From the NCBI GenBank assembly GCA_050943575.1, contig JBMNPL010000003.1, forward strand, positions 1 to 55,151: a stretch of DNA of 55,151 nt, given 5' to 3'. The notes beneath the pieces are model-generated. The model had not been told where the DNA came from and searched no databases. It saw only the letters and a program-made list of their open reading frames with translations. The first letter of the stretch is position 1. Each line of letters starts with the position of its first letter. Origin of the DNA: Alphaproteobacteria bacterium. Its GTDB lineage: Bacteria > Pseudomonadota > Alphaproteobacteria > Rs-D84. A program made the translations under genes and the position numbers. Below, piece by piece: positions 2,448-43,753 of this stretch.

Positions 2448-3236
2448 ATGAGCAATAAGTTTCATAGTTCATTAAATAGAATGGCTCTTTTTACAGCCGT
2501 AATTTTAATCGGCGTTATTTTATTTCATCAAGAAATAATTCAAGTAGCAACTGTAAATATCTGGTTAAATGGCATTATACTAGGAACTACTCTTTTTGGT
2601 ATTATTATTTGTTTTGTTAATGTTTTACGTTTAGTCCCAGAATATAAATGGATGAAAAATTTTTTCAATAATAATAAAACTGATAAATTACCACCAGATG
2701 TTTTGCGCCCCATAGCCATTGTTCTTGATCGCGCAAAATCACAAAAAAAGAATTTTATAAGCGCCCAAGCAATGAACACTTTATTAAATTTAATTGCGGG
2801 ACGTTTTGAAGATCAACGCGATCAATTACATTATATTACAAATGTTTTAATATTCTTGGGCTTGCTTGGAACATTTTGGGGATTAATTCATACAATCGGC
2901 GGATTTTCAAATTTAGTTTCGGTATTAGATTTTAATGATGAAAATGTTATGACTGCAATGCAGCAAAATCTGGCACATCCATTAGCAGGTATGGGGACAG
3001 CTTTTTCTTCATCTTTGTTTGGATTGGCTGGTTCTTTAATTGTTGGATTCCTGGGGTTACAAAATATAATCGCTCAAAATTCTTTATATCGTGAACTAGA
3101 AGAAAATTTAGCCGACAAAACCAGACTAGCAAAACAAGTTGATGCTGATGATTCCGCAGGCAACGTAAATGCGGCTGTAAAAGATTTAACCATTGCAATT
3201 TCAAGGCTGGAACGAGCAGTTACAAAAATAAAATAA
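2448..3236 (+). CDS. MotA/TolQ/ExbB-family proton-channel protein
   Basis: 262 aa with two N-terminal TM helices and a C-terminal TM pair carrying family motifs (FLGLLGTFWGLIHTIGGF; GMGTAFSSSLFGLAGSLIVGF). Confidence 0.8.
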   Translation: MSNKFHSSLNRMALFTAVILIGVILFHQEIIQVATVNIWLNGIILGTTLFGIIICFVNVLRLVPEYKWMKNFFNNNKTDKLPPDVLRPIAIVLDRAKSQKKNFISAQAMNTLLNLIAGRFEDQRDQLHYITNVLIFLGLLGTFWGLIHTIGGFSNLVSVLDFNDENVMTAMQQNLAHPLAGMGTAFSSSLFGLAGSLIVGFLGLQNIIAQNSLYRELEENLADKTRLAKQVDADDSAGNVNAAVKDLTIAISRLERAVTKIK

Positions 3237-3257
3237 TTTTTATCTAAGGAGAGAGAA

Positions 3258-19351: not shown

Positions 19352-19582
19352 TGGTTAGTAATTAGTGGTTAATGTTTGTGAGGTTGTGTCATTCCTGCGT
19401 AGGCAGGAATAAGGCTTATCTAGTGTTAGTGGTTTGTGTTTGTGATAATTGATTGTATAAAAATATATTTTTACTAATTACGAATATATTACAAATCAAG
19501 AAATTAAAGATTTTTAAGACCCTCTCCTGCCTACGCAGGAGTGACACAATGGAGATTGCGAGGAGTGATACTAACCACTAAT
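19352..19582. repeat. Modular intergenic repeat, locus R5
   Basis: Block tggttagtaattagtggttaatgtttgtg, hairpin attcctgc-gtag-gcaggaat (19391-19410), block tagtgttagtggtttgtgtttgtg, inverted hairpin ctcctgc-ctac-gcaggag (19524-19541), and terminal ctaaccactaat overlapping the stop codon of the 990-aa ORF. Confidence 0.9.
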
Positions 19583-22550
19583 AACTTATAAACAAATTAT
19601 TATTATCGGCTGATGGCCAACCATCAATTTTATCACAACCAGATACATTACAATCACCTGTGCCATTTAATCTCCAACACTCTGCGGCAAAATCAAATAT
19701 ACAAGTTGTGCCGGTTAAAATATTCAAAGAGTAATAATTGTTTGGCTCAGCAGGTGGTGTACCTGACGAATAATTTGGATTTCTGTATGTACCATTTGTT
19801 TTATTTATAACAACCCAACGACCAGAACAATTTATAGTATCACCATAGGGATATTCATTTGTTGATGGACTTCCTGAAATTATTCCACCAACACAAACTA
19901 AAAAGTTCATCCCTGGTTTATACCCTGGTATTGATGATGCTTCAGGAATCAAGAAAGCGACTGCAAATTCATTGTCATCACTTGATGAACATATCTTATA
20001 TTCTCCCTGCTCATCAGATTCACCTGAATAACTTGCAGTGGCAGCAAAATTTAAGTTCGAAACTGATTTACTATTATTTGCACCGCAACAATTATTAAAA
20101 TAATCCGTACTATTATTACCTGCACAACAATTTGACCAACCTGCACCCTCCACCCAATCTCCTGTAGAGTAATTAACCGGATCTGAGAAGGATGATTCGG
20201 GATTAACAATATTAAATAAATTTAAAGGACTATCATTAGAGTTTACACAATATGTAATATCACTGGCTAATTGATCATCTGTAGAGCACCCATTGTTAGA
20301 AAGTATATATCCTGGATTACACGTTGAACCATTACAAGATTGATTAGTATTTTCTGCAAACCATGCTAATAAACTATCACTTTGCAAACCGGTATTTAAA
20401 ATTAAACTGTCGCTAATACTAGGACTCTTTGAACAATTACCCCAAATACGTTCTGTAATACGACACAAATCTGCATAAATATTAGAATTATTTGCGCACC
20501 ATAAATGCATACTTGTCGATTGTGCAAGAGTTGTAGTGCCTGATATTGGATCACGAGTATAACTTCCATTACCAACAAAAGTTTCAACATATACACCATT
20601 TTCATTTAAGGAACCAAATTTACCAATATTTGTCATAATATTTGAAATAACTGGTGTACCGGCGGCTGCAACACATTCTTGTACTTCACCCCAACAAGGA
20701 TTATCAATATTAAGATTTAAAAGATTTGTTCGTATAATTGATGTTTCGGATTGACATAAACCAAACTTGGATTCCAAATTCATACAATTACGGATTATAC
20801 AATTTTTACCAACTTCAGTACATGTAGTAATAATTTGATCCAAAGTTTTAGCCGTAGCTATATTTCCAATCGCTTCACCCCAATAACCATCTGTTTCCTG
20901 ACCATTTATTAATGCAGTACAAGCAGTTTTAACATCCGCACAAACTTGATTAACATTCTTATCATAGCTAACACCAAAAATTGAAAGTGCACGAGAATCA
21001 AAATCAACCAAAGAGCCCGAAGTATTCATCATACATTGTGTTGTGATTGTTGTGCAACTTTGCCGCATATCTTCTAATTTTTGTTCCTGTGCTAATTTTA
21101 TTTGTGCCAACGCATCTTCTAAAAAAGATGCCCAAACAACAGACCCCAACGATTCACAATTTTTCATTGATGGTTCTAAGTATTTTTTCTTGGATTCTAA
21201 AAATGTTACAAATTTTTTATTTTGACCCGCTTTACTCCATTTTTCATTACCAGTCGGACGAGTAATCATATCCCCCAATTGACTTAAATCACTTGTTAAT
21301 ATCGCTGAACCAGTCGCAGGATTAATATATTTACCCGACCAATCTAAACATTTACCCATATCCTTGCCACAAACTGATGAATCAGATAAGGCATCCAGCA
21401 TTTTTTTCTTGCATGCTAAAATATCATCAGAATTGCGAGTTTGCTGATTGTTTAATCTTGACATTTCCAGCAATGCGCCGCCTTCGCGAACCTTTTCTAA
21501 AGTTTTATCTTTTAATCCAGCATAAGTTTTTGAAACAGTATTACAATCTTGTTCTATAGCAGCAGTATAAGCATTTTGAGCAATTGGAATTTCGTCCGGT
21601 TCACAAACTTCCGCTGCCATTTCTAGACATGTTGGCAATGCCGCTTTATAAAGATTTTCACCTTCTTTAACCGTTGTTTCAATTCCCATTTCTGGATCAA
21701 TCGTATCAAAAACATTTGTGTCCATTGATAAACTCATCGCAGAAAAATTATTTGCAGATTGAGTATCCGCATTTGCAGATTTTAATTTTTTCATAATCGT
21801 GTTTAATATATTTTTTGAATCTGATTTATCATCTTGCTGAAATGCTAATTCACCTTCGGTAGCAATAGACATTGCAGCAGCATCTTCTTTATCCATATTA
21901 ACAGCCAACAAGCGCTCATTAAAATCTAATAATTTTTGCTCCACCGTATTCAAAGTTTTTTTAATATTATCAAATTCATGTATTCGTGCTGAACAAGCAC
22001 AACGTTTTAATTGTGCATCTTTATTAGCACAAAATTCATCCATACATTGAAAAAAAGTGTCGCGACATAATTTATATCCCGTTGCAGGCTTGCCAATTGT
22101 GCGCGTTGAACTAACACCCGAACGTGCAACCATTGCACTGCGTGGAACCGATAATGTGCCAACACGAGTAGGATTTTTAATAGCACGTCCACCAACATGT
22201 GTGCTTGCAATATTAGTATCAGGGTTACGTGATTTAACCGATGGATTAACTGCTGATCGTGATAAAACTTCACGCGGTTGAGCCACCTGTGCAACCGCAG
22301 CGCGCGTTTTTACATTCGCAGCCGCACGTGGTACCGTGCCACGCACTGATGTTTGTTGATTTGATTTTGTTGTTGATGATTGTTGATGTGCCCTTTGTTC
22401 ACGACTATCCGCCCTGCTGGATGTAGTTGATGTATTTATAATTGATGCACCACGCACTGCTGCACGTGCTGAATCAACATCTTCGGCACGCACAAAACCT
22501 GTGCAAAACAGCATTGCACAAAAAGCAAAGACTAACGGCTTTTTCATCAT
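19578..22550 (-). CDS. Large secreted Cys-rich protein (family A paralogue, 990 aa)
   Basis: Signal peptide MMKKPLVFAFCAMLFCTGFVRA, then an Arg/Ala/Ser/Val-rich low-complexity region. Next come YKLCRDTFFQCMDEFCANKDAQLKRCAC and many further Cys pairs. The C-terminus is N/S/G/C-rich. Confidence 0.85.
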   Translation of the reverse strand: MMKKPLVFAFCAMLFCTGFVRAEDVDSARAAVRGASIINTSTTSSRADSREQRAHQQSSTTKSNQQTSVRGTVPRAAANVKTRAAVAQVAQPREVLSRSAVNPSVKSRNPDTNIASTHVGGRAIKNPTRVGTLSVPRSAMVARSGVSSTRTIGKPATGYKLCRDTFFQCMDEFCANKDAQLKRCACSARIHEFDNIKKTLNTVEQKLLDFNERLLAVNMDKEDAAAMSIATEGELAFQQDDKSDSKNILNTIMKKLKSANADTQSANNFSAMSLSMDTNVFDTIDPEMGIETTVKEGENLYKAALPTCLEMAAEVCEPDEIPIAQNAYTAAIEQDCNTVSKTYAGLKDKTLEKVREGGALLEMSRLNNQQTRNSDDILACKKKMLDALSDSSVCGKDMGKCLDWSGKYINPATGSAILTSDLSQLGDMITRPTGNEKWSKAGQNKKFVTFLESKKKYLEPSMKNCESLGSVVWASFLEDALAQIKLAQEQKLEDMRQSCTTITTQCMMNTSGSLVDFDSRALSIFGVSYDKNVNQVCADVKTACTALINGQETDGYWGEAIGNIATAKTLDQIITTCTEVGKNCIIRNCMNLESKFGLCQSETSIIRTNLLNLNIDNPCWGEVQECVAAAGTPVISNIMTNIGKFGSLNENGVYVETFVGNGSYTRDPISGTTTLAQSTSMHLWCANNSNIYADLCRITERIWGNCSKSPSISDSLILNTGLQSDSLLAWFAENTNQSCNGSTCNPGYILSNNGCSTDDQLASDITYCVNSNDSPLNLFNIVNPESSFSDPVNYSTGDWVEGAGWSNCCAGNNSTDYFNNCCGANNSKSVSNLNFAATASYSGESDEQGEYKICSSSDDNEFAVAFLIPEASSIPGYKPGMNFLVCVGGIISGSPSTNEYPYGDTINCSGRWVVINKTNGTYRNPNYSSGTPPAEPNNYYSLNILTGTTCIFDFAAECWRLNGTGDCNVSGCDKIDGWPSADNNNLFISY

Positions 22551-22592: not shown

Positions 22593-25500
22593 TTAAATAC
22601 CAACAGAATGTTTTATTTTTAACATAAATATAGATTCATCCCCGAATTGATTAGTATGGTCTGGATTTATACGATAAACAAAACCAAGTGCGCCTGTTGT
22701 TGCTCTGCCTAACTGGCTGCGATATGCTAATGAAAATCTTGTTTCACGAACATTGGGCGCTAAATCAAAACTTGCTATATAAGGCGTTGTATTTAATTCA
22801 TACCCACCATCATTTTCAGTAATTTCATAATCCATTGTGGCATATTGCATATTACCAGAACGCACCGCCAAAGGTTGTGTAATTGCAAAAGACCAATTTT
22901 TATAATCAGCAGAGATTGCGAACGAATTTGATTGAATTTCTGATAATCCTAAAATTATATCTCCGTTTGGATTTGCACGAGTATTTACAAATGTAGAACG
23001 TGCAGTTAAAGTTAGCGAATCGGATGGTGAAAACATCAAAGTAGTATCAAGATAAATTGTATTTCCTCCGCCCAGTTCTAATAACCCATTTGAGTATGCA
23101 CCCAGCAATGTATTGTTTTCATGTGCTGTTCCGAAAGAGGTTTTAATAGCGAACTTTTCACCAGTGAAGCCGACCGTGCTTTCGGCGCCTTGGATTAAGC
23201 CTAATTTTTGTGATTCATACATTCCAGAAATTGCAGGGTCTGATTCTAATAATTGTTCGTCTGTGATTTTTCCGCTAAATGCTTTCATACCCACATTCCA
23301 CGCGCCACTAATCCAATTTGCGCCGGTTGATATTGCGTCTGATGCCAATGATAGCACTGGATTTGAGCCGTCTCCGCGTAATACAATATTATCCGAATCG
23401 TTTAAATGATGTTTATATTCGGCGTTTAGTTTCCAATTACCCAATTCATAACCAAATGACATTTCAGATAACCCATTCATATTGATTGTTCTGTTCGATT
23501 CGGAAAATTTCATACTGGTTGAAAATCCATTTAAATTTTGCTCTATTTTATTATTTTTTTGAGTTTCAAAATCACCCAAAACATCACCCAGATAAATTCC
23601 ACGACGATTTCCCGATAATGCAAAATTATTTTCAAATATACGCGGTAAAGTCAAACTACCATCTGCTGATTGTATATAATCCCAAGTTGGTACCGATATA
23701 GATGCACCGCGAGCACCAAAAGCACCCGATAAAGAAAGTCCAGTTTGATGAGCAGTTCCCGCACTAGCAGAACGCCATTGTCCGCCAGTAATAGATGTTG
23801 TTCCAGTTGAATAATATATAGTTGTTCCTGGTTTTGTTGCGCGTTCTAGATTTACCAATCCGTATCCAAATACTTCGGCAAAAACATCTAGATAATCTTC
23901 TCCATTTGTAACCCGCATATTAAATTCTGGTGGTAATACATATTTATTAGATAAAAAGTCTATTAATTCTTCTTTGGTTTTTGGGGTATTATTTGTATTT
24001 GTCGGCGCTAATAAAGTTCCATCACTAGTTAATGCTAGAAGTGTGAAAATTTGATTAGAATTCATATATGGGAATGCACCCTTTATCGTGGCAACAGCGC
24101 CAGCCATTGCTGATACGGCTTGCTCGCCCGTACTGCCAGCGGCTGCGAAACACCAAGGATCTATATTGCCGGTACCCTTGCCTGCCATACCACATGCACG
24201 CGAAGCATACTCGTTTCCATCAGTCCCTTGTTGATACGAAGCCAAAGTTATTTTTCCTGTGGTAGTATTTCCCTCTATCCCTGAAACAGAATCAATACCA
24301 GATGTTCCATTTAGCGTTTGAACCGCAACAACTGACATAAATTTGTGATTCAAATTAGTCCATAATGCTGGTGCAAGATTTTCAAATGTGGGGCCTAGAA
24401 TACTTAAACTTTTACCTTCGCCAAGTCCCCAATTAAATTCACCAGTTGAGTAAATTAAAATTGGCGACCAAAAACCACCCATACCACCAAATAAATTACC
24501 CGCATCATTTCCTGGAATAGATGTATCTGAGGTGTTTTGATTATAATAACTATTTATAAGACTCAAAAAAATAGATTGTTTCGCAGAAATAGTTTCACCA
24601 ACAGAAATTGCTACCAGCGCATCATTTATTGTTGCCGCATTATTATTACGTAATGGCTGAATTATTGATGAATTTGCAATTACATCTACGACTCTATTTC
24701 CACTCTCACTTAAACTTGCAGAATTTAACATTGCTTGATAATTTAAATAATCTGCGGTTGTTAATTGACCAGAAATAACCAAGTTATTTGTATCTGTATC
24801 TAAAGAATAAATATTTGTTGCCCCGCCCCCTGCATCAATATATAACAAGTTATCAATACCAACAATACCTGTAAATCCATGTGCTCCTGTCGCGGTAAAA
24901 GTTTTGGTATTTGAATCATAAATTACTGTATGTTCTTCTCCGTCTATATCTAGAAAAGCAATTGTTTCAAAAGAATTATTATCTGCGGTACCCAGAATTG
25001 TTCCAGTGTCATCCTCGGTCCAGAGTTTTCCAGCACCTGTTCTATAAACAAGCAATTGGCTATTTGGTGCAAATCCATAATAATCACCAGACGCACGGCC
25101 GCCAAATTCCCAACCAGCAATGATTTTTGCCAACGAAGAATCTATATCTGATGCATATTGATTAAATACAGTGCCATATCCAGATAAATCATATATAGGA
25201 TTTTCAGAACCACCATCTTTTTCATTATTATAATATTTATCAACAGCATAAGTTGTTGAATCTGCAGCCGCACTGGTTGCATAATCTATATTTCCACGAA
25301 CCGCACTACCACCCGTCGAATTAATTCCATTACTTGTTATTAATGCTGTTAAAACTGGACGACCACCACCTGTATCATTTAACATAGCAACAGGTGCATA
25401 TTTACCAGATGCCCCCAAACGAAATGTTCTTTGTCCCAAGTATCCACGTGCTAATGGGGAATAACCGCGCATTAATAATAAATAATTTTGTCTGTTATCC

Positions 25501-26129
25501 GAGGACATAAAATTAAAATCTTCATAATATGGATGATTATCAGAATTGCTATAAAAATCTAGTTCATAATTTGTTCCACTGGGACCTGACGGCAATGCAC
25601 CCAATTCCCATGCTGTTGTTGTTGGGGTTGTTGTTCCGCCACTGGAACCACTACCATGCCCGCCTGAATTTCCAGCACCTGTATTTTTTGAACTGCCAGA
25701 TGATGATGAAGATAACATTGCCACACCACCAATTACTGCCGCGGCACCACCTGCCATTAATACCATATTTTGTGGTGTTGATAATCCGCTAAAAAAACCT
25801 TTGGAAGATTTACCAGCTGATTGTTTTTGATGATATTTTTTTATTTGTTGATCACAATTTGACGCGTCTGCACCATAGGCTTGTAAAATTTGAGCGGTAT
25901 GAATATCATTATTATTTATTGCGGTACAAACTATTGATAATCCTGTACTATCTATATAATTTATATTTACACCCGAACGAACCAAGGCATCAACTGTTCT
26001 GGTATCACCTGCCCTGGCGGCTGCTAATAATCGTGCGGCATCTGAAAATTCTGCACGCGCATGATTTGGCATAAAAAATAATATGCTGTTAATAATTAAA
26101 AACGAATAAATAAAGGGTTTAATTTTCAT
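22593..26129 (-). CDS. Autotransporter-like outer-membrane protein with N-terminal ankyrin repeat
   Basis: 1178 aa. Signal peptide FLIINSILFFMPNHARA precedes an ankyrin-type repeat (AARAGDTRTVDALVRSGVNINYIDSTGLSIVCTAINNNDIHTAQILQAYGADAS). A glycine-zipper segment MVLMAGGAAAVIGGVAML and a G/S linker come next. A long G/T/S/N-rich passenger follows. The last ~280 aa have alternating beta-strand character. Confidence 0.65.
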   Translation of the reverse strand: MKIKPFIYSFLIINSILFFMPNHARAEFSDAARLLAAARAGDTRTVDALVRSGVNINYIDSTGLSIVCTAINNNDIHTAQILQAYGADASNCDQQIKKYHQKQSAGKSSKGFFSGLSTPQNMVLMAGGAAAVIGGVAMLSSSSSGSSKNTGAGNSGGHGSGSSGGTTTPTTTAWELGALPSGPSGTNYELDFYSNSDNHPYYEDFNFMSSDNRQNYLLLMRGYSPLARGYLGQRTFRLGASGKYAPVAMLNDTGGGRPVLTALITSNGINSTGGSAVRGNIDYATSAAADSTTYAVDKYYNNEKDGGSENPIYDLSGYGTVFNQYASDIDSSLAKIIAGWEFGGRASGDYYGFAPNSQLLVYRTGAGKLWTEDDTGTILGTADNNSFETIAFLDIDGEEHTVIYDSNTKTFTATGAHGFTGIVGIDNLLYIDAGGGATNIYSLDTDTNNLVISGQLTTADYLNYQAMLNSASLSESGNRVVDVIANSSIIQPLRNNNAATINDALVAISVGETISAKQSIFLSLINSYYNQNTSDTSIPGNDAGNLFGGMGGFWSPILIYSTGEFNWGLGEGKSLSILGPTFENLAPALWTNLNHKFMSVVAVQTLNGTSGIDSVSGIEGNTTTGKITLASYQQGTDGNEYASRACGMAGKGTGNIDPWCFAAAGSTGEQAVSAMAGAVATIKGAFPYMNSNQIFTLLALTSDGTLLAPTNTNNTPKTKEELIDFLSNKYVLPPEFNMRVTNGEDYLDVFAEVFGYGLVNLERATKPGTTIYYSTGTTSITGGQWRSASAGTAHQTGLSLSGAFGARGASISVPTWDYIQSADGSLTLPRIFENNFALSGNRRGIYLGDVLGDFETQKNNKIEQNLNGFSTSMKFSESNRTINMNGLSEMSFGYELGNWKLNAEYKHHLNDSDNIVLRGDGSNPVLSLASDAISTGANWISGAWNVGMKAFSGKITDEQLLESDPAISGMYESQKLGLIQGAESTVGFTGEKFAIKTSFGTAHENNTLLGAYSNGLLELGGGNTIYLDTTLMFSPSDSLTLTARSTFVNTRANPNGDIILGLSEIQSNSFAISADYKNWSFAITQPLAVRSGNMQYATMDYEITENDGGYELNTTPYIASFDLAPNVRETRFSLAYRSQLGRATTGALGFVYRINPDHTNQFGDESIFMLKIKHSVGI

Positions 26130-29310: not shown

Positions 29311-29661
29311 TTAAATATCTGAGAATTTTACATCATTTAAATCAGGAGTTGCGCCAATTGTAAAAAAACCTTCTGATAAATCTAACCAATTCGGGTTCAT
29401 AGTTTCTATCAGTCTATATTTCCAAGCCCGTTTCCATTTTTTTAATTGCTTTTCACAATGTATAGCATCTGTTATTTCATTATAGACTTCAAAATATCCC
29501 AACTTGTTCGTATTATACTTGGATGTATAACTATCCGAAAATTTTCCTTGTTTATGTTGATATACTCGTTTAATCAAGTCCCCTGTTACACCGATATAAG
29601 TCGCTTTTGCACGATTATTAAACATAATATAAACATAGTATCTTCCAACTTTACGAACCAT
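29311..29661 (-). CDS. GIY-YIG domain nuclease (UPF0213-like)
   Basis: 116 aa: YYVYIMFNNRAKATYIGVTGDLIKRVYQHKQG is the GIY-(x10)-YIG motif with a downstream R and a conserved E (HCEKQLKKW). Confidence 0.85.
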   Translation of the reverse strand: MVRKVGRYYVYIMFNNRAKATYIGVTGDLIKRVYQHKQGKFSDSYTSKYNTNKLGYFEVYNEITDAIHCEKQLKKWKRAWKYRLIETMNPNWLDLSEGFFTIGATPDLNDVKFSDI

Positions 29662-29675: not shown

Positions 29676-31100
29676 TTACTTCGAATTATTTAGCATAGTT
29701 CCAATTTCTTCATATATATTTTGATTATTAATTGCTGCATTTGTTTTTAATTCTATGTCAGCAAATTGTTGCGCCACAGTTGGATTTGCAGGGTTCGCTC
29801 CTTGCCATGAAGCCGTTGAAACCAGATTGTTTTGAATGTTTATTTCTTTGCCAGAAGGTTGCTCCATATTCGAGTTTTTATCTTTATTAACTGTCTGTTT
29901 TTGTAGATCTTTATCAATCTTGTTAAAAACTTCTTGTGGTATTTCAGGATCATTAACATCATCTATTATTTTTAATGATGAATTTAGATTATCAGTTCCT
30001 GTTAGGGTTGGGGTTTCAGTAGATTGAGAATCGTAGTATTGTCCCCCCCCTTCATTCTCAACGAAGTCTTCCTGTAATAATGATGTATCATCATTCGTTT
30101 TATTTGCTTCTTGTTCGGCTTTTTTCTTTGCGACGGCATTTACTAATGCATGACCACCAATTGATGTAACCACACCTGCACCAAGTGCAATTGCACCACC
30201 GGTTACACGTTTTTGACTGGTGGCTTGTTGTTCTGCCAGCATTTGAGCATCACGACTGTTTTCATCTAATAAAGCCTCGCTTAATCTGCCAAAAGTGCTG
30301 GATGCACGACCTAAATCTTGATATTCATATAAACCAGTTGTTTTTTCATCCAAAATAACTTCGGATTCTATTCCTGCTTTTAATCCTAGTTGTTCTTTTG
30401 TATTTTTTAATTCCGCGGCTTTATTAAAATATTCTTCACGTAATAAATCTAGCCTATGTTCAGCATCAAGTGTAATATTTACATCGCCATAATTTGCCCT
30501 TTTGTTTGAATAAGAACAATATAGTTTTGATAAATAATCTTGCATATCTCTGATGGCTTCTTTATCTGCTTTCTTTTCAGCTAAACCTTGGGCTAATTGC
30601 ATGCTACCAATACCTATGGCAGCAGTTGAAACACTGGAAATAGCCTTGTTCATGCCACTTTGACCAATCTTGTCGTCAGATTTATCTTCTTCAGCATCAA
30701 CAATATTGGTATCACCGGTATTATTAAAATTATCTATTTCTTCCCCAGATTGTTCAGATTGTCGAAGTTTTGCATAAAGATTGGCAGATTTTTCATTAGT
30801 AGAACTTATTTCTTTTTCCATTTTTTTAATAATTTTGTCAGAATTTTTATTAGCATAACTATTATTTGCAATAAGGTCTTTTATTGTATTTTCGTAATCG
30901 TTAGCGGCAACATCTAATTTGCTAGTTAATGACTTTACAGTATCTATTGTAGAATCTGTCAAAATTTTATTAACTGAGTTTACATAATTACTTTTTGCGT
31001 TTTCTATCAACCTATCAGCAGTATGACGGTCAGTGTTGGCGATTACAGGTGTCGCAACAAAAATTCCAATACTAAATAAAATTACAAATGTTTTTTTCAT
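29676..31100 (-). CDS. Secreted coiled-coil protein with two glycine-zipper segments (474 aa)
   Basis: Signal peptide MKKTFVILFSIGIFVATPVIA. Segments are AAIGIGSMQLAQGLAEKKADKEA and GGAIALGAGVVTSIGGHALVNAVAKKKAEQEA. The start overlaps the upstream stop (ATGA). Confidence 0.8.
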   Translation of the reverse strand: MKKTFVILFSIGIFVATPVIANTDRHTADRLIENAKSNYVNSVNKILTDSTIDTVKSLTSKLDVAANDYENTIKDLIANNSYANKNSDKIIKKMEKEISSTNEKSANLYAKLRQSEQSGEEIDNFNNTGDTNIVDAEEDKSDDKIGQSGMNKAISSVSTAAIGIGSMQLAQGLAEKKADKEAIRDMQDYLSKLYCSYSNKRANYGDVNITLDAEHRLDLLREEYFNKAAELKNTKEQLGLKAGIESEVILDEKTTGLYEYQDLGRASSTFGRLSEALLDENSRDAQMLAEQQATSQKRVTGGAIALGAGVVTSIGGHALVNAVAKKKAEQEANKTNDDTSLLQEDFVENEGGGQYYDSQSTETPTLTGTDNLNSSLKIIDDVNDPEIPQEVFNKIDKDLQKQTVNKDKNSNMEQPSGKEINIQNNLVSTASWQGANPANPTVAQQFADIELKTNAAINNQNIYEEIGTMLNNSK

Positions 31101-32311
31101 TTTTTATTCCCCAATTGGAACATTTCACCCAATGCTTTACCAGCCTGTTCACCTGCGCCACTACCCGCACCAATCGCAGGAGTTACTTTATTTAATACCG
31201 TTCCGCCCATCGTGCCAACACCTGCGCCCATTAATGCACTGGTGGCTGCTTTTTGTTCGCGTGTTAAACGCGCAGCGTCTTCTTTATAAGTTGTTACATC
31301 AATATTAAACCATTCTTGTGTGCAATTAAATGGTTGTCCTGCGTATAATTTCCTGCTGGCAAATGGACCAGAACTGCCCGCAACCCAAAATTCAGCCGTA
31401 TAAACACAACTAAATGAACGTTCATCAAACATTGCACCAATAGCCTTGCATTGTTCTGCCATTTTATCGCGTAATTCATAAAGTTCTTTCTCATCTGCTG
31501 CAACTTGTTTTTCAACATCTTGACGTAATGTGCCCAAAACATCCATAGCACGCGCAGCCAATCCAGAATCAGCAGTTTTGCATTTGTCAGCAATTGTAGA
31601 ACAATCAGAAATTACTTTATCGCCCGCCGCTTTATTTAAACATCCGCGTAATTGTTTGCCACACCCAGAAATAAAACATTCGTTATATTCAGAACCACAC
31701 ATCTGAACATCTGCAAAATCACCAATTAACCTGTAAGCATCACGATCGGCTTTAATCTCTGGTGCAAAAGCAGCATATTCCGCACCCGTACACTTAGATT
31801 TCAAACGACAAGATTCTATTTTTTCACCCCATAATAAATCTGTATCTAGTGCACAATTTTTAAAATTATCACCGCATTTTTCTTGCATACATTTACGTAA
31901 ATTTTCATCACATAAATTTCGTCCGCTGTTCGCAACAGCCGCTGTGCGTGCAGTTCCCACAGAAGTTTTTATTGACGATTCGTCCGCCATACGTTGCGCT
32001 TTTATCATGTCTTTTAAATCTGAACCGGCTGCTTCGCCAGATGATTGCCCATCCAATGCCGCAGAAAACTTGCTGATTTTTTCAGCATCTATTATTGGAG
32101 TTTCTTCCTTAACTTCTTGGACTTCTTCTTTAACAGGTTCTGGAACAACTTCTTTAATAGCCGGTTGAGGAGTCGCAACTGGGCGACGAGCACGACTGAC
32201 TGCTGGCACTTCACTGGTGGATGATACTGTTGGACGTGCAACTACACCCGCAGCATTTGCAAAGCCGGAAATTAAAATTGATAATAAAGAGCAAAAAATA
32301 ATATTTTTCAT
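31097..32311 (-). CDS. Secreted Cys-rich protein (family A paralogue, 404 aa) with C-terminal glycine-zipper
   Basis: Signal peptide ...LSILISGFANA and an Arg/Pro/Val-rich linker (VARPTVSSTSEVPAVSRARRPVATPQP). Cys motifs are LCDENLRKCMQEKCGDNFKNC and later pairs. The C-terminus is ALMGAGVGTMGGTVLNKVTPAIGAGSGAGEQAGKA. Confidence 0.8.
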   Translation of the reverse strand: MKNIIFCSLLSILISGFANAAGVVARPTVSSTSEVPAVSRARRPVATPQPAIKEVVPEPVKEEVQEVKEETPIIDAEKISKFSAALDGQSSGEAAGSDLKDMIKAQRMADESSIKTSVGTARTAAVANSGRNLCDENLRKCMQEKCGDNFKNCALDTDLLWGEKIESCRLKSKCTGAEYAAFAPEIKADRDAYRLIGDFADVQMCGSEYNECFISGCGKQLRGCLNKAAGDKVISDCSTIADKCKTADSGLAARAMDVLGTLRQDVEKQVAADEKELYELRDKMAEQCKAIGAMFDERSFSCVYTAEFWVAGSSGPFASRKLYAGQPFNCTQEWFNIDVTTYKEDAARLTREQKAATSALMGAGVGTMGGTVLNKVTPAIGAGSGAGEQAGKALGEMFQLGNKK

Positions 32312-32317
32312 TCTTTT

Positions 32318-33178
32318 TTACCTTAACCTTTCACACGCGGTTTTTTGAAATTTACATAATTGTTGCGCCATTACCTTTTCGCTTGGAAATTCGGGAGCAC
32401 AACCATTTTTCATATTTTGAGCACATACATTTGAAACACATTTATCATAAGCAGAATTATTTGCACAACCTGATTTGGCAGATTCCAGTTTTGCCTGACG
32501 TTCAGATTTATACCTTTCAACTAGTTTAGTTATTGCCAATTCAGAATTTTTTACAGCATTATCACGCGCGGTTAAATTAGCCGTGCGAATATCATTGGTA
32601 AATTCTGAACATCCAGATGAAGCAACACTACATTCTGAAAAAACACGATTAAAATCAGTATCATCACGACATAATGAAAAATCTGTATTGCATTTTTTTT
32701 CATCACGAATACAGATGTTAATTTCAGATTCGCATACTTGTTTGTCTTTTTTACTTGTAACAGATTTTTGCGCGCTTGCCATTTTGATTTCTATGGATGC
32801 CGCACGACAAGATTGTTCAATTAATTTATCATATTCATCAGTATCATCCGCAGTACATTCATTAATTTTTTTAGAACACTCTTTTATCGCCCATGCGTAT
32901 CTTTCTGCTGGGGATGATGGTGCAGATTTTAATTGCGCAGCAGTTAAAGTGTTTTTTGCAGACATACCCAATGTAATCGCAGACATACCACTGGTATCTT
33001 TTCCAGCATCAGATGTTCCGCATAATTGACATCGGGCAGCTGGATTTGTTCCGATATTAATTGCACATGCAGAATCAAGACATTGATTAAAGTTTTGTTT
33101 CAAGCAAGCAGCATGCGCACCAGCGCAAAAACAAAAAGCGAAAATTCCGCTAAAAAAAATGCTTATTGATTTTTTCAT
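32318..33178 (-). CDS. Secreted Cys-rich protein (family A paralogue, 286 aa)
   Basis: Signal peptide ...FAFCFCAGAHA, then AACLKQNFNQCLDSACAINIGTNPAARCQLCG, KECSKKINECTADD, VCESEINICIRDEKKCNTDFSLC and more, about 30 Cys in total. Confidence 0.8.
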   Translation of the reverse strand: MKKSISIFFSGIFAFCFCAGAHAACLKQNFNQCLDSACAINIGTNPAARCQLCGTSDAGKDTSGMSAITLGMSAKNTLTAAQLKSAPSSPAERYAWAIKECSKKINECTADDTDEYDKLIEQSCRAASIEIKMASAQKSVTSKKDKQVCESEINICIRDEKKCNTDFSLCRDDTDFNRVFSECSVASSGCSEFTNDIRTANLTARDNAVKNSELAITKLVERYKSERQAKLESAKSGCANNSAYDKCVSNVCAQNMKNGCAPEFPSEKVMAQQLCKFQKTACERLR

Positions 33179-33219: not shown

Positions 33220-33729
33220 TTAAAAGCAAAAGTTGTCTGAAATTTTTTTAATTGTATTATTTATTATTTCTAAATCTTCGGATGAAAAGCGCCCCAAAAC
33301 CCAATCAGATGTATCCATAGGCTGATTGCTTCGCCCAACACCAATACGAATACGATGATAATCACGACCAACAGCAGCATCTATGCTTTTAATCCCGTTA
33401 TGCCCCGCACTGCCCCCACCTGTTTTTTCGCGAACATCGCCGATTTTCAAATCAATATCATCATGAATTACCACAAGATTTTCCAATGGGATTTTATAAA
33501 AAGTCATCAATGCCTGAACCGCTAAGCCTGATAAATTCATAAAAGTTTGAGGTTTTGCAAAAATTACATTTTCAGTTTTTGATACCAATGATTTTTTTTC
33601 TTTTTTCCATACCGCATCTGTACCAGCCAGCGCATCAACAGCCATAAAACCGACATTATGACGTGTATTTAAATAAGCAGTCCCTGGATTTCCCAATCCA
33701 ACAATCAATATAGGTTTATTTTTTTGCAT
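33220..33729 (-). CDS. pth: Peptidyl-tRNA hydrolase
   Basis: ILIVGLGNPGTAYLNTRHNVGFMAVD and GGSAGHNGIKSI motifs. Confidence 0.95.
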   Translation of the reverse strand: MQKNKPILIVGLGNPGTAYLNTRHNVGFMAVDALAGTDAVWKKEKKSLVSKTENVIFAKPQTFMNLSGLAVQALMTFYKIPLENLVVIHDDIDLKIGDVREKTGGGSAGHNGIKSIDAAVGRDYHRIRIGVGRSNQPMDTSDWVLGRFSSEDLEIINNTIKKISDNFCF

Positions 33730-37675: not shown

Positions 37676-39988
37676 ATGAAGAAAAAAATTTTACTGATTA
37701 CAGGTTTATTATTCTTGGGTCAAGCAGTTGAAGCCGCACCGGCTGTACGAGGACGACCTGCTCCTGCGAATGCAACACAATCAAATACGACAACGGTGGC
37801 ACGTTCTGGTAGAATTGTACCAAAAGCAGCAGCGACAGCACCAAAGCCAAGTGGAAATGTTGTGGCAGCACGTTCTGCAACAAAACAAAATGTTGTTCAA
37901 TCGGGTGTTGCTATTCAGGCGGCAACTACTAATACAATTGTAAGTGATGAATGCAAAACTAAATATTATGGCTGTATGGATAGTTTTTGTATGTTAGACA
38001 ATGCTAGTGGTGGACGTTGTTATTGCAGTGATAAAAATTCTGAATTTGATAATATACTGGCGCAAATAAAGAAATTGGATGATCAATCACGAGATATGGC
38101 AACCGTTGGTGTTGAAAAAATAGAATTAAGAAGTGCTGATAAAGATAAAGCAGATTATATTTCAGAAACTGTACAAGCTGTGGCTGACGAATTTACAACG
38201 GATTCTTCTCAACCTAAAAAAACTACCAGAACTCGCGCTTCTTTGGATTTAAGTATTTTTGATAGTCAACCGACATTTGGTTTTGATGCAGAAGAAACTG
38301 TTGAAAATGCAGATCTTAGTTTAATTCAAGGTAAAACTGGTGATGTATTACACAATACTGTTCGCAATATTTGCACTAAACAAATTCCAGAATGTTCAAA
38401 AGATATTCAAATGCTGCAAATGATGTATGCGCAAACAATACAATCTGATTGTCGTAGTTATGAAAATTATTTGCAAAAAATGAAAGATGAATCTACGAAA
38501 AAATTACGAGTAGCACAACAAGCCATGCGTGATAAAGCATTAGAGGTTTATGAAGAATCAAATAAATGGGATTTGGGGCAATGTGTGGGTGAGATGCGTA
38601 AATGTATGCAGGATACAGCGCGCGGTGGATGTGGTAATGATTGGACTGGATGTGTTGGTATTGTTGCCGCTGAAAATGCACGTTCGGGGTTATCTTCACG
38701 TACCAGAACTAGATCTGGGATGGTTAGCATAGAAGGAAGTGCGACAAAGATTTCAATCGCTGCGAGTACTTATGATGCATTATTATCAAAAAAACCATTA
38801 TGTGAATCAGTAACTAAAAATTGTGTTGCTGCTGTTAGCAAGGATAAAGATGCGGTATGGAATATATTTTTGCGTGAAATTGCACCGGCTTTGAAATCTG
38901 CGGAATTATTGGCGGAATCAAATCGCAGAACTGATTGTATTGGTAATATTTCAGAATGCTTTAGAAAAGGTTGTGCGGATACTATGACAGATGAAGCAAG
39001 TTTTGATTTATGTATAACCAGACCCGAAGCAATGTTAAATATATGTAAAGTTCAATTAAACGAATGTGGAATTTCAACTAATTCTGCTGCAGAAGCACAA
39101 AAATCTGAAATATGGAGTTTTGTCTTGGCAAGGCTTGCATCAATGCGTGTTGATTCTTGTACAAGAGATGTTAAACAATGCTTGCAATCTGAAGATCGTT
39201 GTGGTGAAAATTATTCACAATGTGTTGGATTAGATATGGATGATGTAATGGCAATGTGTCCACAAGAAAAATTAGTTGGATGTGCTGCTGATACCCCACA
39301 ATCCTTTATTGATAGACTTGATGAAATAGTATCTGGTGTATTACTGGGTATAGATAACGCGATGCAATTGAAATGTCAAGCGGCAGTGGATGAAAAGTTA
39401 AATGAATTACGTGGTGAAAAAGGTGGTTATAAAGCATTTAGTGCAGAAACTTTTGGAACAGAAGGAATTATTCTTGATGAATCTCATCCAGAATATGTAA
39501 CCATTCGTGGACTAATTGATTTTGAAAAACTTACCCATGATGATAATAAAACTGTAGTTGCGGGTACTATGGATGGGACATCTGCCAGTATTTCTAATGC
39601 AAATCTAAAAACAATTGCAAATAGTATAAATAATGTAATCACTCAATTAAAATCAGATCCAAAAATAAATGATTGCGTAAATGGTAGAGACATGACTAAT
39701 ATCCGTAAATCTGGTGGACAATCAGGTGGTAGATTCCCAAATTTATTAGATACGTTTATTCTTGAAATTATAAATACCGGAATAGATACTGCAAGAAATA
39801 ATTATAATACAAAAGTTAATGAATTAAAAACTCAGGCTATGAAAACAGCGCAAGAAAGATTGGTAGCAGCACAAGCAAAACAAGCAGCAGAAAAAAATGC
39901 TAAGCCACCTGTTAATTGTATAAGTCCTGGGATACTTTTTAGCATAGATTATTATAAAAATAAATACCCAAACGTTACTAAGAAATAA
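37676..39988 (+). CDS. Large secreted Cys-rich protein (family A paralogue, 770 aa)
   Basis: Signal peptide ...LLFLGQAVEA and an Arg/Ala-rich linker (AVRGRPAPAN...VARSGRIV...VAARSATK). Cys motifs include DECKTKYYGCMDSFCMLDNASGGRCYC, MYAQTIQSDCRSY and LGQCVGEMRKCMQDTARGGCGNDWTGC. Confidence 0.85.
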   Translation: MKKKILLITGLLFLGQAVEAAPAVRGRPAPANATQSNTTTVARSGRIVPKAAATAPKPSGNVVAARSATKQNVVQSGVAIQAATTNTIVSDECKTKYYGCMDSFCMLDNASGGRCYCSDKNSEFDNILAQIKKLDDQSRDMATVGVEKIELRSADKDKADYISETVQAVADEFTTDSSQPKKTTRTRASLDLSIFDSQPTFGFDAEETVENADLSLIQGKTGDVLHNTVRNICTKQIPECSKDIQMLQMMYAQTIQSDCRSYENYLQKMKDESTKKLRVAQQAMRDKALEVYEESNKWDLGQCVGEMRKCMQDTARGGCGNDWTGCVGIVAAENARSGLSSRTRTRSGMVSIEGSATKISIAASTYDALLSKKPLCESVTKNCVAAVSKDKDAVWNIFLREIAPALKSAELLAESNRRTDCIGNISECFRKGCADTMTDEASFDLCITRPEAMLNICKVQLNECGISTNSAAEAQKSEIWSFVLARLASMRVDSCTRDVKQCLQSEDRCGENYSQCVGLDMDDVMAMCPQEKLVGCAADTPQSFIDRLDEIVSGVLLGIDNAMQLKCQAAVDEKLNELRGEKGGYKAFSAETFGTEGIILDESHPEYVTIRGLIDFEKLTHDDNKTVVAGTMDGTSASISNANLKTIANSINNVITQLKSDPKINDCVNGRDMTNIRKSGGQSGGRFPNLLDTFILEIINTGIDTARNNYNTKVNELKTQAMKTAQERLVAAQAKQAAEKNAKPPVNCISPGILFSIDYYKNKYPNVTKK

Positions 39989-40000: not shown

Positions 40001-40648
40001 ATGAATATAAATAAAATTTTTTATACCCTATTTTTAGGATTTATGATTTCCGTATTTTATAATCCTTTGGCGATTGCTAAATGTAAAGGTAATGATATAG
40101 CAACTGATATTATACGAGGTGTGTATGGATGTAATTGTAAAAATGGGGATCCTACGGATTATAATAAAAAAGATGGCGTAAAGGGAAATTTTAGAATTTT
40201 TGTAGATTTTCCTGATATGTATTATTGTTATACAAGTTTGGTAGATGACGATCGATGGAGAGATGCTAAGGAGTATTTATGTCCTGGATTTAAATATAAT
40301 AATTATAATGAAGAAACCATGATACCAAAAGCACAACATAATGGTCCTTTGGATGGAAATGGTTGTTGGAAATGGGAATGTAAAGAAGGTTTTATTTTGG
40401 ATAATCCTATTACTAAAACATGTAAACCTAAACCAGCAGAAGCACCAACAGCAGAAAATACCGTATTATGTGATGATACATCAAGAATGAATAATATTAC
40501 TATAGGTGAAACCACATATAACAATGTTCCAAAAAATGTAGTATTTGATGGAAAATGTGTTAAAGTATGTGAAAAATCAGCTGAAGTAAATGAAAAATCA
40601 AATATAATAATCGCAGACGAAACAGAGTTTTCAATAAGGTTGCAATAA
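40001..40648 (+). CDS. Secreted Cys-rich protein (ECxxGF / GxCxxVCE motif family, 215 aa)
   Basis: Signal peptide ...ISVFYNPLAIA. Motifs are GCWKWECKEGFILDN and DGKCVKVCEKS, shared with the 6578-7429 ORF. It starts 12 nt after the 770-aa ORF. Confidence 0.75.
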   Translation: MNINKIFYTLFLGFMISVFYNPLAIAKCKGNDIATDIIRGVYGCNCKNGDPTDYNKKDGVKGNFRIFVDFPDMYYCYTSLVDDDRWRDAKEYLCPGFKYNNYNEETMIPKAQHNGPLDGNGCWKWECKEGFILDNPITKTCKPKPAEAPTAENTVLCDDTSRMNNITIGETTYNNVPKNVVFDGKCVKVCEKSAEVNEKSNIIIADETEFSIRLQ

Positions 40649-41838: not shown

Positions 41839-42798
41839 CTACACAACCTCGGTAACTGCGCGTAAACTACCATCACGAGCCAATTGAACTACTCGTATTT
41901 TCTTCTTCATTTCTTCTATTAACTCACTGCGATTATATGCCGGTTGAGTATGTAAAATCCTATCCGCAAATGCAGCATAAGCAGCCTCAGCCGATTCGGC
42001 ATGAATCGTTGTATAAAAATGATCGTGCCCTGTTCCCAACATTTCCCATAATACAGACGCATTGTCCGTAGAAATCTCGCCACCAATAATTACATCCGGA
42101 GTCATACGAACAACCAAATCTAATAACCTTGCATAGTTAAATTTATTAGTTTGCTCTGTTCTGGATAAAATAAAATGAACCCGATTTTTCTGAGGAACCT
42201 TAATCTCACGAGCATCCTCAACCGTTATAACACGCGCATTCTGATCAATCAAAGTCAAAATGTGATTCAAAACTGTTGTTTTCCCAGTACTAGTCGCACC
42301 AGAAATTAAAATAGGACTGCCGTCATTAATCGCAGCCATAACCCTTTCATACGGATCATCAGGTTTCTTTTTACCACGAGGTTTTATCTCCATCAATTTA
42401 TGACCGCGTTTCAAATGATAGTTTTCAAACCCAACATCCGGCGCACCACTGCCACGAATGTTCATCGCAACACCACCCGTCACATCATTATCATCATACA
42501 TAACATTAGGACCAGCAATCGCAGTAAACCTATGATTCCCTGGTAAAGTAGCATAAACAACAGGCATGCCACGAATCGGATCAAATGGACGTTCATAAAC
42601 ATTTGCAACCGTATGAATTAAATCAATCAGATATTGCTTGCTTAGTTTTTCAGATTGATACGCCACCCACGGAACTCGCGCGCCATGTAAACGCATCCAA
42701 ACCTCGCCTGCACGATTAATCGCTATTTCCTCCACAAAAGATGGAGTAAAAAATTCTTCCAAAGGTTTTATTAAAGAATCTAAAACAATATCTGCCAT
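41839..42798 (-). CDS. virB11: VirB11-family type IV secretion/traffic ATPase
   Basis: 319 aa with Walker A GATSTGKTT, Asp box VITVEDAREI, Walker B PDVIIGGEI and His box GHDHFYTTIHA. Confidence 0.8.
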   Translation of the reverse strand: MADIVLDSLIKPLEEFFTPSFVEEIAINRAGEVWMRLHGARVPWVAYQSEKLSKQYLIDLIHTVANVYERPFDPIRGMPVVYATLPGNHRFTAIAGPNVMYDDNDVTGGVAMNIRGSGAPDVGFENYHLKRGHKLMEIKPRGKKKPDDPYERVMAAINDGSPILISGATSTGKTTVLNHILTLIDQNARVITVEDAREIKVPQKNRVHFILSRTEQTNKFNYARLLDLVVRMTPDVIIGGEISTDNASVLWEMLGTGHDHFYTTIHAESAEAAYAAFADRILHTQPAYNRSELIEEMKKKIRVVQLARDGSLRAVTEVV

Positions 42799-42873: not shown

Positions 42874-43419
42874 ATGAAAAAATATATTTATTTATCCCTT
42901 GTAATTCTATTAGGTGCTTGTACCACTACAAACAATGCCCAAGATTTTGAACAACCTTGTGAAACAACACCATTTTATAATGAACAATCAGCCGGACTTA
43001 TGGGGCCACATAATCAATACGCAAATATTGATTCTCTCCGTCCAAAAACACCCGAAGAAGCCGCACATATGGATTCAAAATGGAATACTTCACGTAAAGA
43101 AACAACTTGGCAAGAATATCATGGCACAATGGTCAGGATTGAAGTTCTATTAGGTTCAGACGATTTAAGAGAAATGCGGTTGCGTTTAATTCAAAATGCA
43201 AACGGAATGGATGTTGATGGAGATTTTCGCAGCGTTCTGGATAAAGTATCAGAATTTGAAATGAAACGTGTATGTGGACGAAATTCCACATCATATGTCA
43301 TTGTATATGATAAACCATCTTTTGAAGTATTACGCCCAACGCCATATTTTGACTACCGAATTCAAGATGATGGTGTAAATATGCGTGAATATGGTTTCAG
43401 ATGTATTTATAATAATTAA
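42874..43419 (+). CDS. Hypothetical lipoprotein
   Basis: 181 aa with lipobox LLGAC after a hydrophobic N-terminus. I recognise no family. Confidence 0.6.
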   Translation: MKKYIYLSLVILLGACTTTNNAQDFEQPCETTPFYNEQSAGLMGPHNQYANIDSLRPKTPEEAAHMDSKWNTSRKETTWQEYHGTMVRIEVLLGSDDLREMRLRLIQNANGMDVDGDFRSVLDKVSEFEMKRVCGRNSTSYVIVYDKPSFEVLRPTPYFDYRIQDDGVNMREYGFRCIYNN

Positions 43420-43435
43420 ACAAAAAGGATATAAA

Positions 43436-43753
43436 ATGAGAAAATTATTCGCAGCAATAGTTATGGGTTCTGCAATTTTTGTCGGTGCATGTGATAGTGG
43501 TGCAAAACAAGGTGATACAGTTATAATTAATTTTGCCGGATTCCTAAACGGACAACAATTCCCTGGTGGAACCGCAGAAAACTTTCCATTAAAACTAGGT
43601 GATGGACAATTTGTCCCTGGATTTGAAGATCAATTAGTCGGAATGAAAAAAGGTGAAGAACGCGAAATAAAAATTAAATTCCCAGATCAATATGTTCCTG
43701 GATTAGCAGGTGAAAATGTCGTGTTCAAAGTTAAACTAATAGATATTAAATAA
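43436..43753 (+). CDS. Lipoprotein consisting of a trigger-factor-type FKBP PPIase domain
   Basis: I place the start at ATG 43436 (MRKLFAAIVMGSAIFVGAC lipobox). The remainder is GDTVIINFAGFLNGQQFPGGTAENFPLKLGDGQFVPGFEDQLVGMKKGEEREIKIKFPDQY...LAGENVVFKVKL, which matches the trigger-factor PPIase-domain pattern. Confidence 0.7.
   Translation: MRKLFAAIVMGSAIFVGACDSGAKQGDTVIINFAGFLNGQQFPGGTAENFPLKLGDGQFVPGFEDQLVGMKKGEEREIKIKFPDQYVPGLAGENVVFKVKLIDIK

Follow-up and report, generated by a model that had tools for sequence, protein, structure and literature searches.

Exported cysteine-ladder and glycine-zipper proteins of a conserved gene cluster in Rs-D84-type gut Alphaproteobacteria: a possible envelope scaffold

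Several described systems bear some resemblance to the locus considered here, two of which may be named at the outset. In the chlamydial cysteine-rich outer membrane complex, OmcB is a β-rich protein and OmcA a lipoprotein; in Escherichia coli, YiaD has the architecture of a glycine zipper joined to an OmpA domain. Elements reminiscent of both occur together in three adjacent minus-strand genes, p286, p404 and p474, named after the lengths of their products. They lie within a 55,151-nucleotide stretch of contig JBMNPL010000003.1 (positions 1 to 55,151; assembly GCA_050943575.1, Alphaproteobacteria bacterium, lineage Rs-D84), which is referred to below as the window. We consider it likely that the three proteins are exported, disulfide-rich and functionally linked, and quite possible, if short of probable, that they form a disulfide-stapled scaffold or tether of the cell envelope. 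The coordinates of the genes and of their parts are collected in Table 1.

All three open reading frames (ORFs) begin with a Sec-type signal peptide, as a preliminary description of this DNA had claimed: a start with Lys or Arg is followed by a hydrophobic stretch and an A-x-A-type cleavage site (AHA/A, ANA/A and VIA/N, respectively, the slash marking the cut). Signal peptides and membrane helices were judged by a home-made heuristic, not by SignalP or a trained predictor, with Kyte–Doolittle values for hydrophobicity; by the same heuristic the pattern is also present on the window proteins p990, p770, p215 and p1178. Cysteine makes up 7.7% of p286 and 4.0% of p404, the median for ORFs of the window being 1.2%. 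The reiterated C-x6/7-C-(M/L/I) motifs quoted in the preliminary description are present, and a stronger signature is the spacing C-x6-C, which accounts for six of the 19 spacings between neighbouring cysteines in p286, five of 14 in p404, ten of 28 in p770 and six of 39 in p990; shuffled sequences lead one to expect 0.4–1.3 (P ≤ 0.0014 for each of these four proteins). Since seven positions correspond to two helical turns, cysteines so spaced would line one face of a helix. The conserved cysteines number 20 in p286 (even), 15 in p404 (odd) and one in p474.

Homologues of p286 fall into 242 clusters with 43–72% identity and are nearly all 285–291 residues long; across 82 sequences the 20 cysteines are invariant. 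An invariant CxxC (C50/C53) is embedded in the most conserved stretch, NPAARCQ[YL]CG. The AlphaFold2 (AF2) model, based on an alignment of 42 sequences, consists of 12 helices, the longest of 49 residues, without any strand, and has a predicted local distance difference test (pLDDT) value of 78. A lipoprotein reading of p286 was rejected: no lipobox is conserved, orthologues carrying K, T, S or A at position −1 of the first cysteine, and K, T or S there speaks against it. When 1.84 billion representative proteins were searched exhaustively with the p286 profile, the kind of jackhmmer-type range check that the preliminary description had proposed, 66 proteins matched, 65 of which fit the family as complete members or fragments; the weakest match is an unrelated-looking 840-residue repeat protein (P0306, E = 5.7e-4). 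As essentially only family members were recovered, the family is closed and lineage-specific.

The homologues of p404 fall into 133 clusters. In the window protein, the cysteines of the conserved core are arranged as two C-x6-C-x4-C-x6-C-x12/14-C-x5/6-C modules followed by C288, C302 and C330. After the core come a three-stranded sheet, the glycine-zipper motif TREQxxATSALMGxGxG and a tail. Short in the window protein, this tail is K/E/D-rich in relatives, can be as long as 300 residues there and in some cases contains small cysteine knots. Helices, some of them 40–49 residues long, make up nearly the whole of the AF2 models of p286 and the p404 core, p404 adding the three-stranded sheet; for p404, pLDDT exceeds 85 over approximately residues 130–300 and is below 50 at both ends. 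The disordered linker that precedes the core is rich in Arg, Pro, Glu and Thr and is the window version of a VVSR...RMPTM element of relatives. In the form VVSR...(S/A)RMPTM, this element comes after the signal peptide of 51% of p404 homologues and of 95% of the proteins of another cysteine-rich family, F10; some p770-type proteins have it too, as does at least one homologue with a trypsin domain (P0337). More generally, an Arg-containing element recurs at the N-termini of p404, p770, p990 and their relatives (for example L043:15205-17292, L numbers denoting related loci). It might serve as a signal for sorting, processing or attachment.

Only residues ~150–325 of p474 are conserved among the 56 family members; they comprise a first glycine zipper, a core of ~120 residues and a second glycine zipper. 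The coiled coil at the N-terminus and the tail at the C-terminus are free to vary, family members range from 341 to 1866 residues in length, and a minimal 286-residue form of the core also exists. Seventeen of 28 orthologues, among them L043 and the close window relatives L008, L009 and L010, end in an OmpA peptidoglycan-binding domain (Pfam, best E = 1.2e-18); CarboxypepD_reg is found in ten of the 28 and CPL1-like cysteine knots in seven. Weaker matches to the family include six proteins with a trypsin-like domain (P0336, P0337 and P0339–P0342) and one with CarboxypepD_reg (P0344), these assignments being precomputed Pfam domains. The single cysteine is retained in P0337, P0344 and P0323, and the two weaker matches whose loci were retrieved, P0337 and P0344, are encoded outside the main cluster. 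Binding to the wall, HtrA-like proteases and CarboxypepD_reg extensions belong to the periplasm; given its fusions to OmpA, trypsin-like and CarboxypepD_reg domains, the p474 core looks like a periplasm-facing docking or anchoring module with exchangeable cargo. A degenerate OmpA domain in the p474 of the window was considered and rejected, a hidden Markov model built from the OmpA tails of orthologues giving E = 0.11. At L085:10001-12037 and L086:10001-12286, paralogues of the p474 core lie apart from the main cluster, with rpsU and ClpB as neighbours; their fusion partners are a trypsin-like protease or else ankyrin-like, CarboxypepD_reg and EGF-like parts. In one clade, a 1008-residue protein of repeated small cysteine knots (C-x3-GG-x-W...C-x-C) is encoded between the p404 and p474 homologues (L001:10364-13387, plus strand).

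p286 and p404 homologues come solely from metagenomes and from metagenome-assembled genomes (MAGs) labelled Alphaproteobacteria or Rickettsiales bacterium, and none of them is named or has a Pfam domain covering its conserved part. When one genome per species was scanned, p286 relatives were located at 258 places, many of them in MAGs of 'Candidatus Enterousia' recovered from the guts of ruminants, horses, mice, humans and termites. Enterousia, a member of the order Rs-D84, has genomes of ~0.75–1.0 Mb, lacks respiration, most biosynthesis and standard transporters, encodes many uncharacterized membrane proteins and is thought to be partner-dependent, an obligate symbiont or parasite (PMC12306168). 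The closest relatives of the window (L005–L010, 57–65% identity) are sister to those of Enterousia. Four of them (L006–L009), from MAGs with the title 'uncultured Muribaculaceae bacterium', have the cluster with the synteny of the window (pth, polA, ppiD); these bins are probably mislabelled or contaminated.

The coordinates and junctions given in the preliminary description were confirmed: on the minus strand, pth and p286 are separated by 41 nt, p286 and p404 by 6 nt, and p474 and a GIY-YIG nuclease ORF by 14 nt, and the stop of p404 overlaps the start of p474 by 4 nt (ATGA). A scan for promoters and terminators was uninformative, the counts equalling shuffle expectation. When ORFs were called and clustered in 84 related loci, the order p286 > p404 proved universal, with a p474-like gene next in most loci. 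The tight packing from which translational coupling had been proposed is retained as well: p286–p404 gaps lie mostly between −20 and +24 nt in 79 relatives, and of 55 loci 39 have no more than 50 nt between p404 and p474, an extra gene or a gap of >200 nt intervening in ~15. In ~70 loci, a homologue of p1178, an ankyrin protein, is encoded divergently just upstream of p286, often with the small genes F4 and F8, and p990/p770-type and other cysteine-rich genes (F10, F12) are often near the trio. The arrangement pth–p286–p404–p474 is confined to the clade of the window, in which p1178–p990 is displaced by ~3.5 kb. Median identities to distant relatives are 46% for p286, 44% for p404 and 40% for p1178, and for TpiA, GrpE and PpiD, which are encoded beside the trio, they are 51%, 51% and 45%. 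Because gene order and conservation are kept across relatives, the trio is a core cluster passed on by vertical descent, not an inserted one; judged by these genome comparisons, it is a core gene cluster of Ca. Enterousia/Rs-D84-type gut Alphaproteobacteria. The proposal that the module had been 'inserted' downstream of pth is therefore not borne out, the cluster being found at 258 places in species-representative genomes, and its siting by pth is clade-specific, the usual neighbour being p1178. Being as conserved as glycolytic and chaperone genes, the trio must be central to the biology of the cell.

Searches for described relatives gave no match for the trio in Pfam (E ≤ 1) or NCBIfam, run on eight candidate proteins, or in PADLOC; Pfam run on all members of the family alignments yielded accessory domains only, and slices yielded none at E ≤ 10. 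Single trio sequences found no match among PDB sequences. Among PDB sequence-profile comparisons of p286, p404, p770/p990 and p1178 (middle part and C-terminus), none matched, and only the ankyrin part of p1178 did. The best Foldseek E values of the AF2 models (p286 against PDB, 4.9; p404 against PDB, 2.8; p286 against BFVD, 2.6) are meaningless, and a literature search found no papers on the p286, p404 or p474 proteins. The statement that the proteins belong to no named family holds in Pfam, NCBIfam, PADLOC, PDB and Foldseek searches, and the profile (HMMER-type) and Foldseek checks proposed with it matched no characterized family. A mobile origin was rejected, tblastn finding no match for p286 in phages or for p404 in plasmids and the G+C content being unremarkable.

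A check for dsbA, likewise proposed in the preliminary description, revealed a membrane-anchored DsbA-like protein with a CPYC site adjoining recO in five related loci (L013:3719-4537, minus strand; L014; L020; L032; L051), with matches to DsbA/ScsC structures in the PDB down to E = 7e-21; the lineage thus has a candidate disulfide oxidase. The window starts 313 nt beyond recO, and its edge falls just short of the expected position of this gene. In the scaffold that we propose, all three proteins would be exported by Sec, and p286 and the p404 core would be elongated, near-wholly helical bodies rigidified by disulfide ladders on one helix face, the disulfides probably being made by a DsbA-type oxidase like that of the relatives. 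The odd cysteine count of p404 and the single cysteine of p474 suggest that the spare cysteine of the former and C195 of the latter are probably joined by an intermolecular disulfide, or that each protein forms a covalent dimer. The zipper–core–zipper module of p474 would be the docking or anchoring unit, the OmpA-type fusions of relatives would locate the assembly in the periplasm, with links to both the wall and a membrane, and together with the co-located p1178 the trio would serve to brace or tether the envelope of a cell whose genome is <1 Mb in size. The disulfides, the p404–p474 link, membrane attachment through the glycine zippers and the structural role are what we infer. The envelope role raised in the preliminary description gains independent support from the OmpA domains of p474 orthologues and from the DsbA-like oxidase of relatives. 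Taken together, what had been noticed is real and well beyond chance, the families are new, and an order-specific envelope complex, the reading that accounts for most of the facts, is plausible.

Several points weigh against this scaffold. Pfam detects no OmpA_C-like domain in the window's own p474, and in p404 and p474 the Kyte–Doolittle values of the glycine-zipper segments lie at or below threshold, which makes these segments too polar for ordinary inner-membrane helices; because these segments are not predicted to be transmembrane helices, the earlier idea of membrane-inserting partners is weak. No Dsb gene occurs within the 55-kb window, and a largely anoxic habitat and the lack of respiratory chains in the lineage (PMC12306168) leave the route of oxidation unclear. 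Surface or host-interaction proteins, too, typically have hypervariable tails, EGF/CPL1-like cysteine knots and ankyrin repeats. Finally, confidence in the AF2 models is no better than moderate (predicted template-modelling scores of 0.43 for p286 and 0.36 for p404).

The main rival reading is an apparatus on the cell surface that would make contact with a partner or host cell, serving attachment and possibly pore-mediated uptake, and in which the cysteine ladder would be a rigid stalk, the zippers would insert in the partner membrane and the tails and ankyrin repeats would bind the partner. It would suit a lineage regarded as an obligate symbiont or parasite devoid of standard transporters (PMC12306168) and accords with p474 and p404 tails that are highly variable in length and sequence, with EGF/CPL1-like knots in relatives and ankyrin repeats in the conserved neighbour p1178, and with the share of the window, ~28%, that encodes the exported cysteine-rich/glycine-zipper repertoire (nine ORFs including p1178, ~5,190 residues by summed ORF lengths). 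However, the domains to which relatives fuse the p474 core (OmpA, HtrA-like trypsin, CarboxypepD_reg) are periplasmic in type, p286 and the p404 core are under strong purifying and not diversifying selection, and neither an outer-membrane secretion route nor similarity to known adhesins or pore formers was identified, so that we hold this apparatus to be unlikely, though worth keeping in view. Effectors directed at the host membrane, suggested in the preliminary description, are without positive evidence and are weakened by the same fusions to the p474 core. Secreted glycine-zipper proteins do include known membrane-damaging toxins, and an ATPase gene of the type II/type IV secretion type lies at 41839-42798; but toxins or effectors against host or competitor cells are hardly to be expected from single-copy core genes with housekeeping-like conservation, no immunity gene and no mobile or defence context, the more so as OmpA fusions tie relatives to the producer's own wall, and we give this reading very little credence.

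That the three genes are merely independent neighbours with unrelated roles and no complex would explain why p404 and the p474-like gene are parted by another gene or by >200 nt in ~15 of 55 relatives, and why the p474 core module is found at other genomic sites too. It fits poorly with the adjacency of p286 and p404, with minimal gaps, in essentially all 79 relatives, with a trio order kept across lineages that are only 45% identical and with the complementary cysteine counts (one odd, one single), and seems improbable. The cysteines might instead bind metal or buffer redox state or sulfide in the periplasm, a view to which the reducing gut, the invariant CxxC of p286 and the lack of a Dsb gene in the window lend something. 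Yet their i,i+7 spacing along helices is unlike CxxC/CxxxC metal sites, the count in p286 is even, relatives possess a DsbA-like oxidase and similar cysteines occur in EGF-like knots, which are classic disulfide modules; we think metal binding or buffering quite improbable. In the most far-reaching reading, the trio, p1178 and the large cysteine-ladder paralogues would constitute an undescribed envelope organelle specific to ultra-small gut Alphaproteobacteria, a covalent, disulfide-laddered helical scaffold by which interchangeable modules (wall anchor, protease, adhesive knots) would be plugged into the envelope through the glycine-zipper docking unit and which would mediate contact with, and feeding on, a partner cell; this reading as a whole is rather doubtful.

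The large paralogues p990 and p770 are clear homologues (BLASTP 1e-15 to 1e-20; HHalign 99.8%). Against p770/p990, HHalign gives 80% for p404 (E = 1.5e-5, 144 columns), or 84% (E = 7.2e-6, 141 columns) once a stray F10 row is taken out, and 93% (E = 2.8e-7, 169 columns) against the p770 family with local alignments; for p286 the values are 66% (E = 5e-5) and, with that row out, 79% (E = 1.6e-5), each over 193 columns. The comparison of p286 with p404 gives 64% (E = 7e-5, 98 columns). The cysteine registers are consistent in the three pairwise alignments, C149–C190/C238–C282 of p286 corresponding to C134–C174/C205–C244 of p404 and to C303–C326/C421–C464 of p770; the shared domain spans ~130–190 residues, and the ladder region of p286 aligns in register with residues 134–224 of p404 and 233–464 of p770. 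In controls, reversed profiles gave E = 0.3–0.8 and the unrelated cysteine-rich family F12 scored lower. These profile comparisons firmly indicate a cysteine-ladder domain common to p404, p770 and p990, which p286 tentatively shares; p474 is outside this family. The four cysteine-motif paralogues of the preliminary description thus stand as far as p404, p770 and p990 are concerned (HHalign 80–99.8%), the link to p286 being moderate (64–79%), and the multi-locus repertoire that it envisaged is seen in related cysteine-rich genes both in the window and near the trio in relatives. F10-type proteins were rejected as members of the p770 family: an HHalign value of 99.7% was due to one F10 row in the alignment and falls to 2.9% without it.

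Other exported cysteine-rich products of the window include a 593-residue protein (10091-11872, plus strand) with 16 cysteines and two glycine-zipper segments, related to F10 (HHalign 97.5%) and not to p770/p990, a 283-residue protein (6578-7429, plus strand) with 16 cysteines, and p215 (40001-40648, plus strand) with 11; the last two show EGF-like C-x-C-x2-G-[FY] patterns. The odd cysteine counts of p770 (29) and the adjacent p215 (11) echo the p404/p474 pairing. In p1178, neither the middle part nor the C-terminus beyond the ankyrin repeats found a match in Pfam slices or PDB profiles. Its last 298 residues look β-barrel-like, showing mainly period-2 hydrophobicity (56% versus 18% of windows in a crude periodicity test); this C-terminus may be the β-domain of a type Va autotransporter, for which Pfam (slices, E ≤ 10) and a PDB profile gave no match. 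A subtilase-like reading of p1178, based on motifs, was dropped for want of profile support.

Table 1. Positions of the trio, its parts and associated genes in the window
Feature	Position	Strand	Remarks
p990	19578-22550	-	Large paralogue; Cys-ladder domain and Cys/Asn/Ser-rich C-terminal part
p1178	22593-26129	-	Signal peptide, two ankyrin repeats, Gly-rich segment, 730-aa unmatched domain, conserved β-periodic C-terminus
p1178 β-periodic C-terminal 298 aa	22596-23489	-	Highly conserved
p1178 Gly-rich hydrophobic segment	25704-25778	-	Borderline hydrophobicity for a membrane helix
p1178 ankyrin repeats (two)	25845-26048	-	Only recognizable piece of the protein
GIY-YIG nuclease ORF	29311-29661	-	14 nt 3' of p474; Pfam match
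p474	29676-31100	-	Exported, 474 aa; signal peptide, variable coiled coil, Gly-zipper/core/Gly-zipper module, variable tail
p474 conserved module (aa 151-325)	30126-30650	-	Gly-zipper 1 at 30585-30638, Gly-zipper 2 at 30135-30209
p474 Cys195 codon	30516-30518	-	Sole Cys of p474; invariant in 56/56 family members
p404	31097-32311	-	Exported, 404 aa; signal peptide, linker, Cys-ladder core, small β-sheet, glycine zipper
p404 glycine-zipper segment (aa 350-385, TREQKAATSALMGAGVGTMGG...)	31157-31264	-	Conserved motif TREQxxATSALMGxGxG
p404 conserved core (aa 96-335)	31307-32026	-	15 invariant Cys
p404 N-terminal low-complexity linker (aa 21-95)	32027-32251	-	Arg motifs AGVVAR, SRARRPVAT; AF2 pLDDT <50
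p286	32318-33178	-	Exported, 286 aa; all-helical (predicted), 20 invariant Cys, no anchor segment
p286 Cys-ladder region (aa 25-282)	32333-33106	-	Modules C25-C53, C101-C124, C149-C190, C238-C282
p286 signal peptide (aa 1-23, AHA/A)	33110-33178	-	Heuristic
pth	33220-33729	-	Upstream of p286 on the same strand in the window's clade only; context, outside the system
p770	37676-39988	+	Large paralogue with Cys-ladder domain

Envelope genes near the cluster in the window encode PpiD, two small outer-membrane barrels, a Pom-type porin, an OmpA-family protein and a MotA/ExbB-like protein. The porin (4634-5962, plus strand; 442 residues) matches the Pom family of Protochlamydia outer membrane porins with E = 5.9e-10, which is unexpected in an alphaproteobacterium. 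A MotA/TolQ/ExbB-like gene followed by a 378-residue OmpA-family gene occupies 2448-4394 (plus strand) in a lineage reported to be without flagella, and this pair is kept next to the cluster in several relatives (F15/F16). A T2SSE-family secretion ATPase of 319 residues (41839-42798, minus strand) is 85–89% identical across distant relatives and travels with two small uncharacterized ORFs (42874-43419 and 43391-43753). The GIY-YIG ORF, which sits between p474 and ppiD, resembles a recent selfish insertion; since its family was found in none of 86 related loci by ORF calls and synteny, it is probably an insertion unrelated to the trio.

Rs-D84/Enterousia bacteria are widespread in animal and human guts, have genomes of <1 Mb and lead an obscure mode of life (PMC12306168). 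The trio proteins are new families and possibly new folds, with a heptad-spaced cysteine ladder and a glycine-zipper docking module with exchangeable cargo. If they form an envelope scaffold, they would show that a diderm envelope can be built and braced by non-homologous means; should they form a contact apparatus, they would offer a handle on how these symbionts exploit their partners.

In comparison with described systems, the trio resembles chlamydial OmcA/OmcB with MOMP in Sec export, cysteine richness, a setting in small-genome host-dependent bacteria and proposed disulfide stiffening, a likeness extended by the Pom-type (Protochlamydia) porin homologue of the window. It differs in showing no sequence or profile similarity to them (Pfam/NCBIfam; none among 48 p404 homologues either), in its predicted helical folds and C-x6-C ladder and in the lack of a lipobox, the cleavage regions of p404 and p474 (ANA/AG and VIA/NT) having no cysteine at +1. 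With glycine-zipper outer-membrane proteins of the YiaD type (Gly-zipper_Omp, Rick_17kDa_Anti), most p474 orthologues share a zipper and a C-terminal OmpA domain; the p474 family has in addition a coiled coil, a 120-residue core and an invariant cysteine, the window p474 is without OmpA, and the Pfam models Gly-zipper_Omp, YMGG and Rick_17kDa_Anti match neither p404 nor p474 at E ≤ 1, nor a slice of the p474 core at E ≤ 10. Helices stapled by cysteine pairs at a fixed helical period in an oxidizing compartment are also known from mitochondrial twin CX9C/CX3C (CHCH) proteins. There is no CHCH match in Pfam for p286 or p404, in which the dominant spacing is C-x6-C and not paired CX9C/CX3C; up to four cysteines follow in a row, with ten putative disulfides per domain, and the proteins are larger and would reside in a bacterial periplasm. 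The Helicobacter Hcp proteins (Sel1-like repeats) are likewise secreted helical repeat proteins, with one disulfide per repeat, but their cysteine pattern and architecture differ and no Sel1 or TPR profile matched. With the tethers Lpp, Pal and OmpA, which link outer membrane and peptidoglycan, the trio would share its proposed job, that of an elongated helical strut with a peptidoglycan-binding module by which envelope geometry is fixed; the likeness is functional only, without homology or a lipid anchor, and the strut proposed here would be made of several subunits and braced by disulfides.

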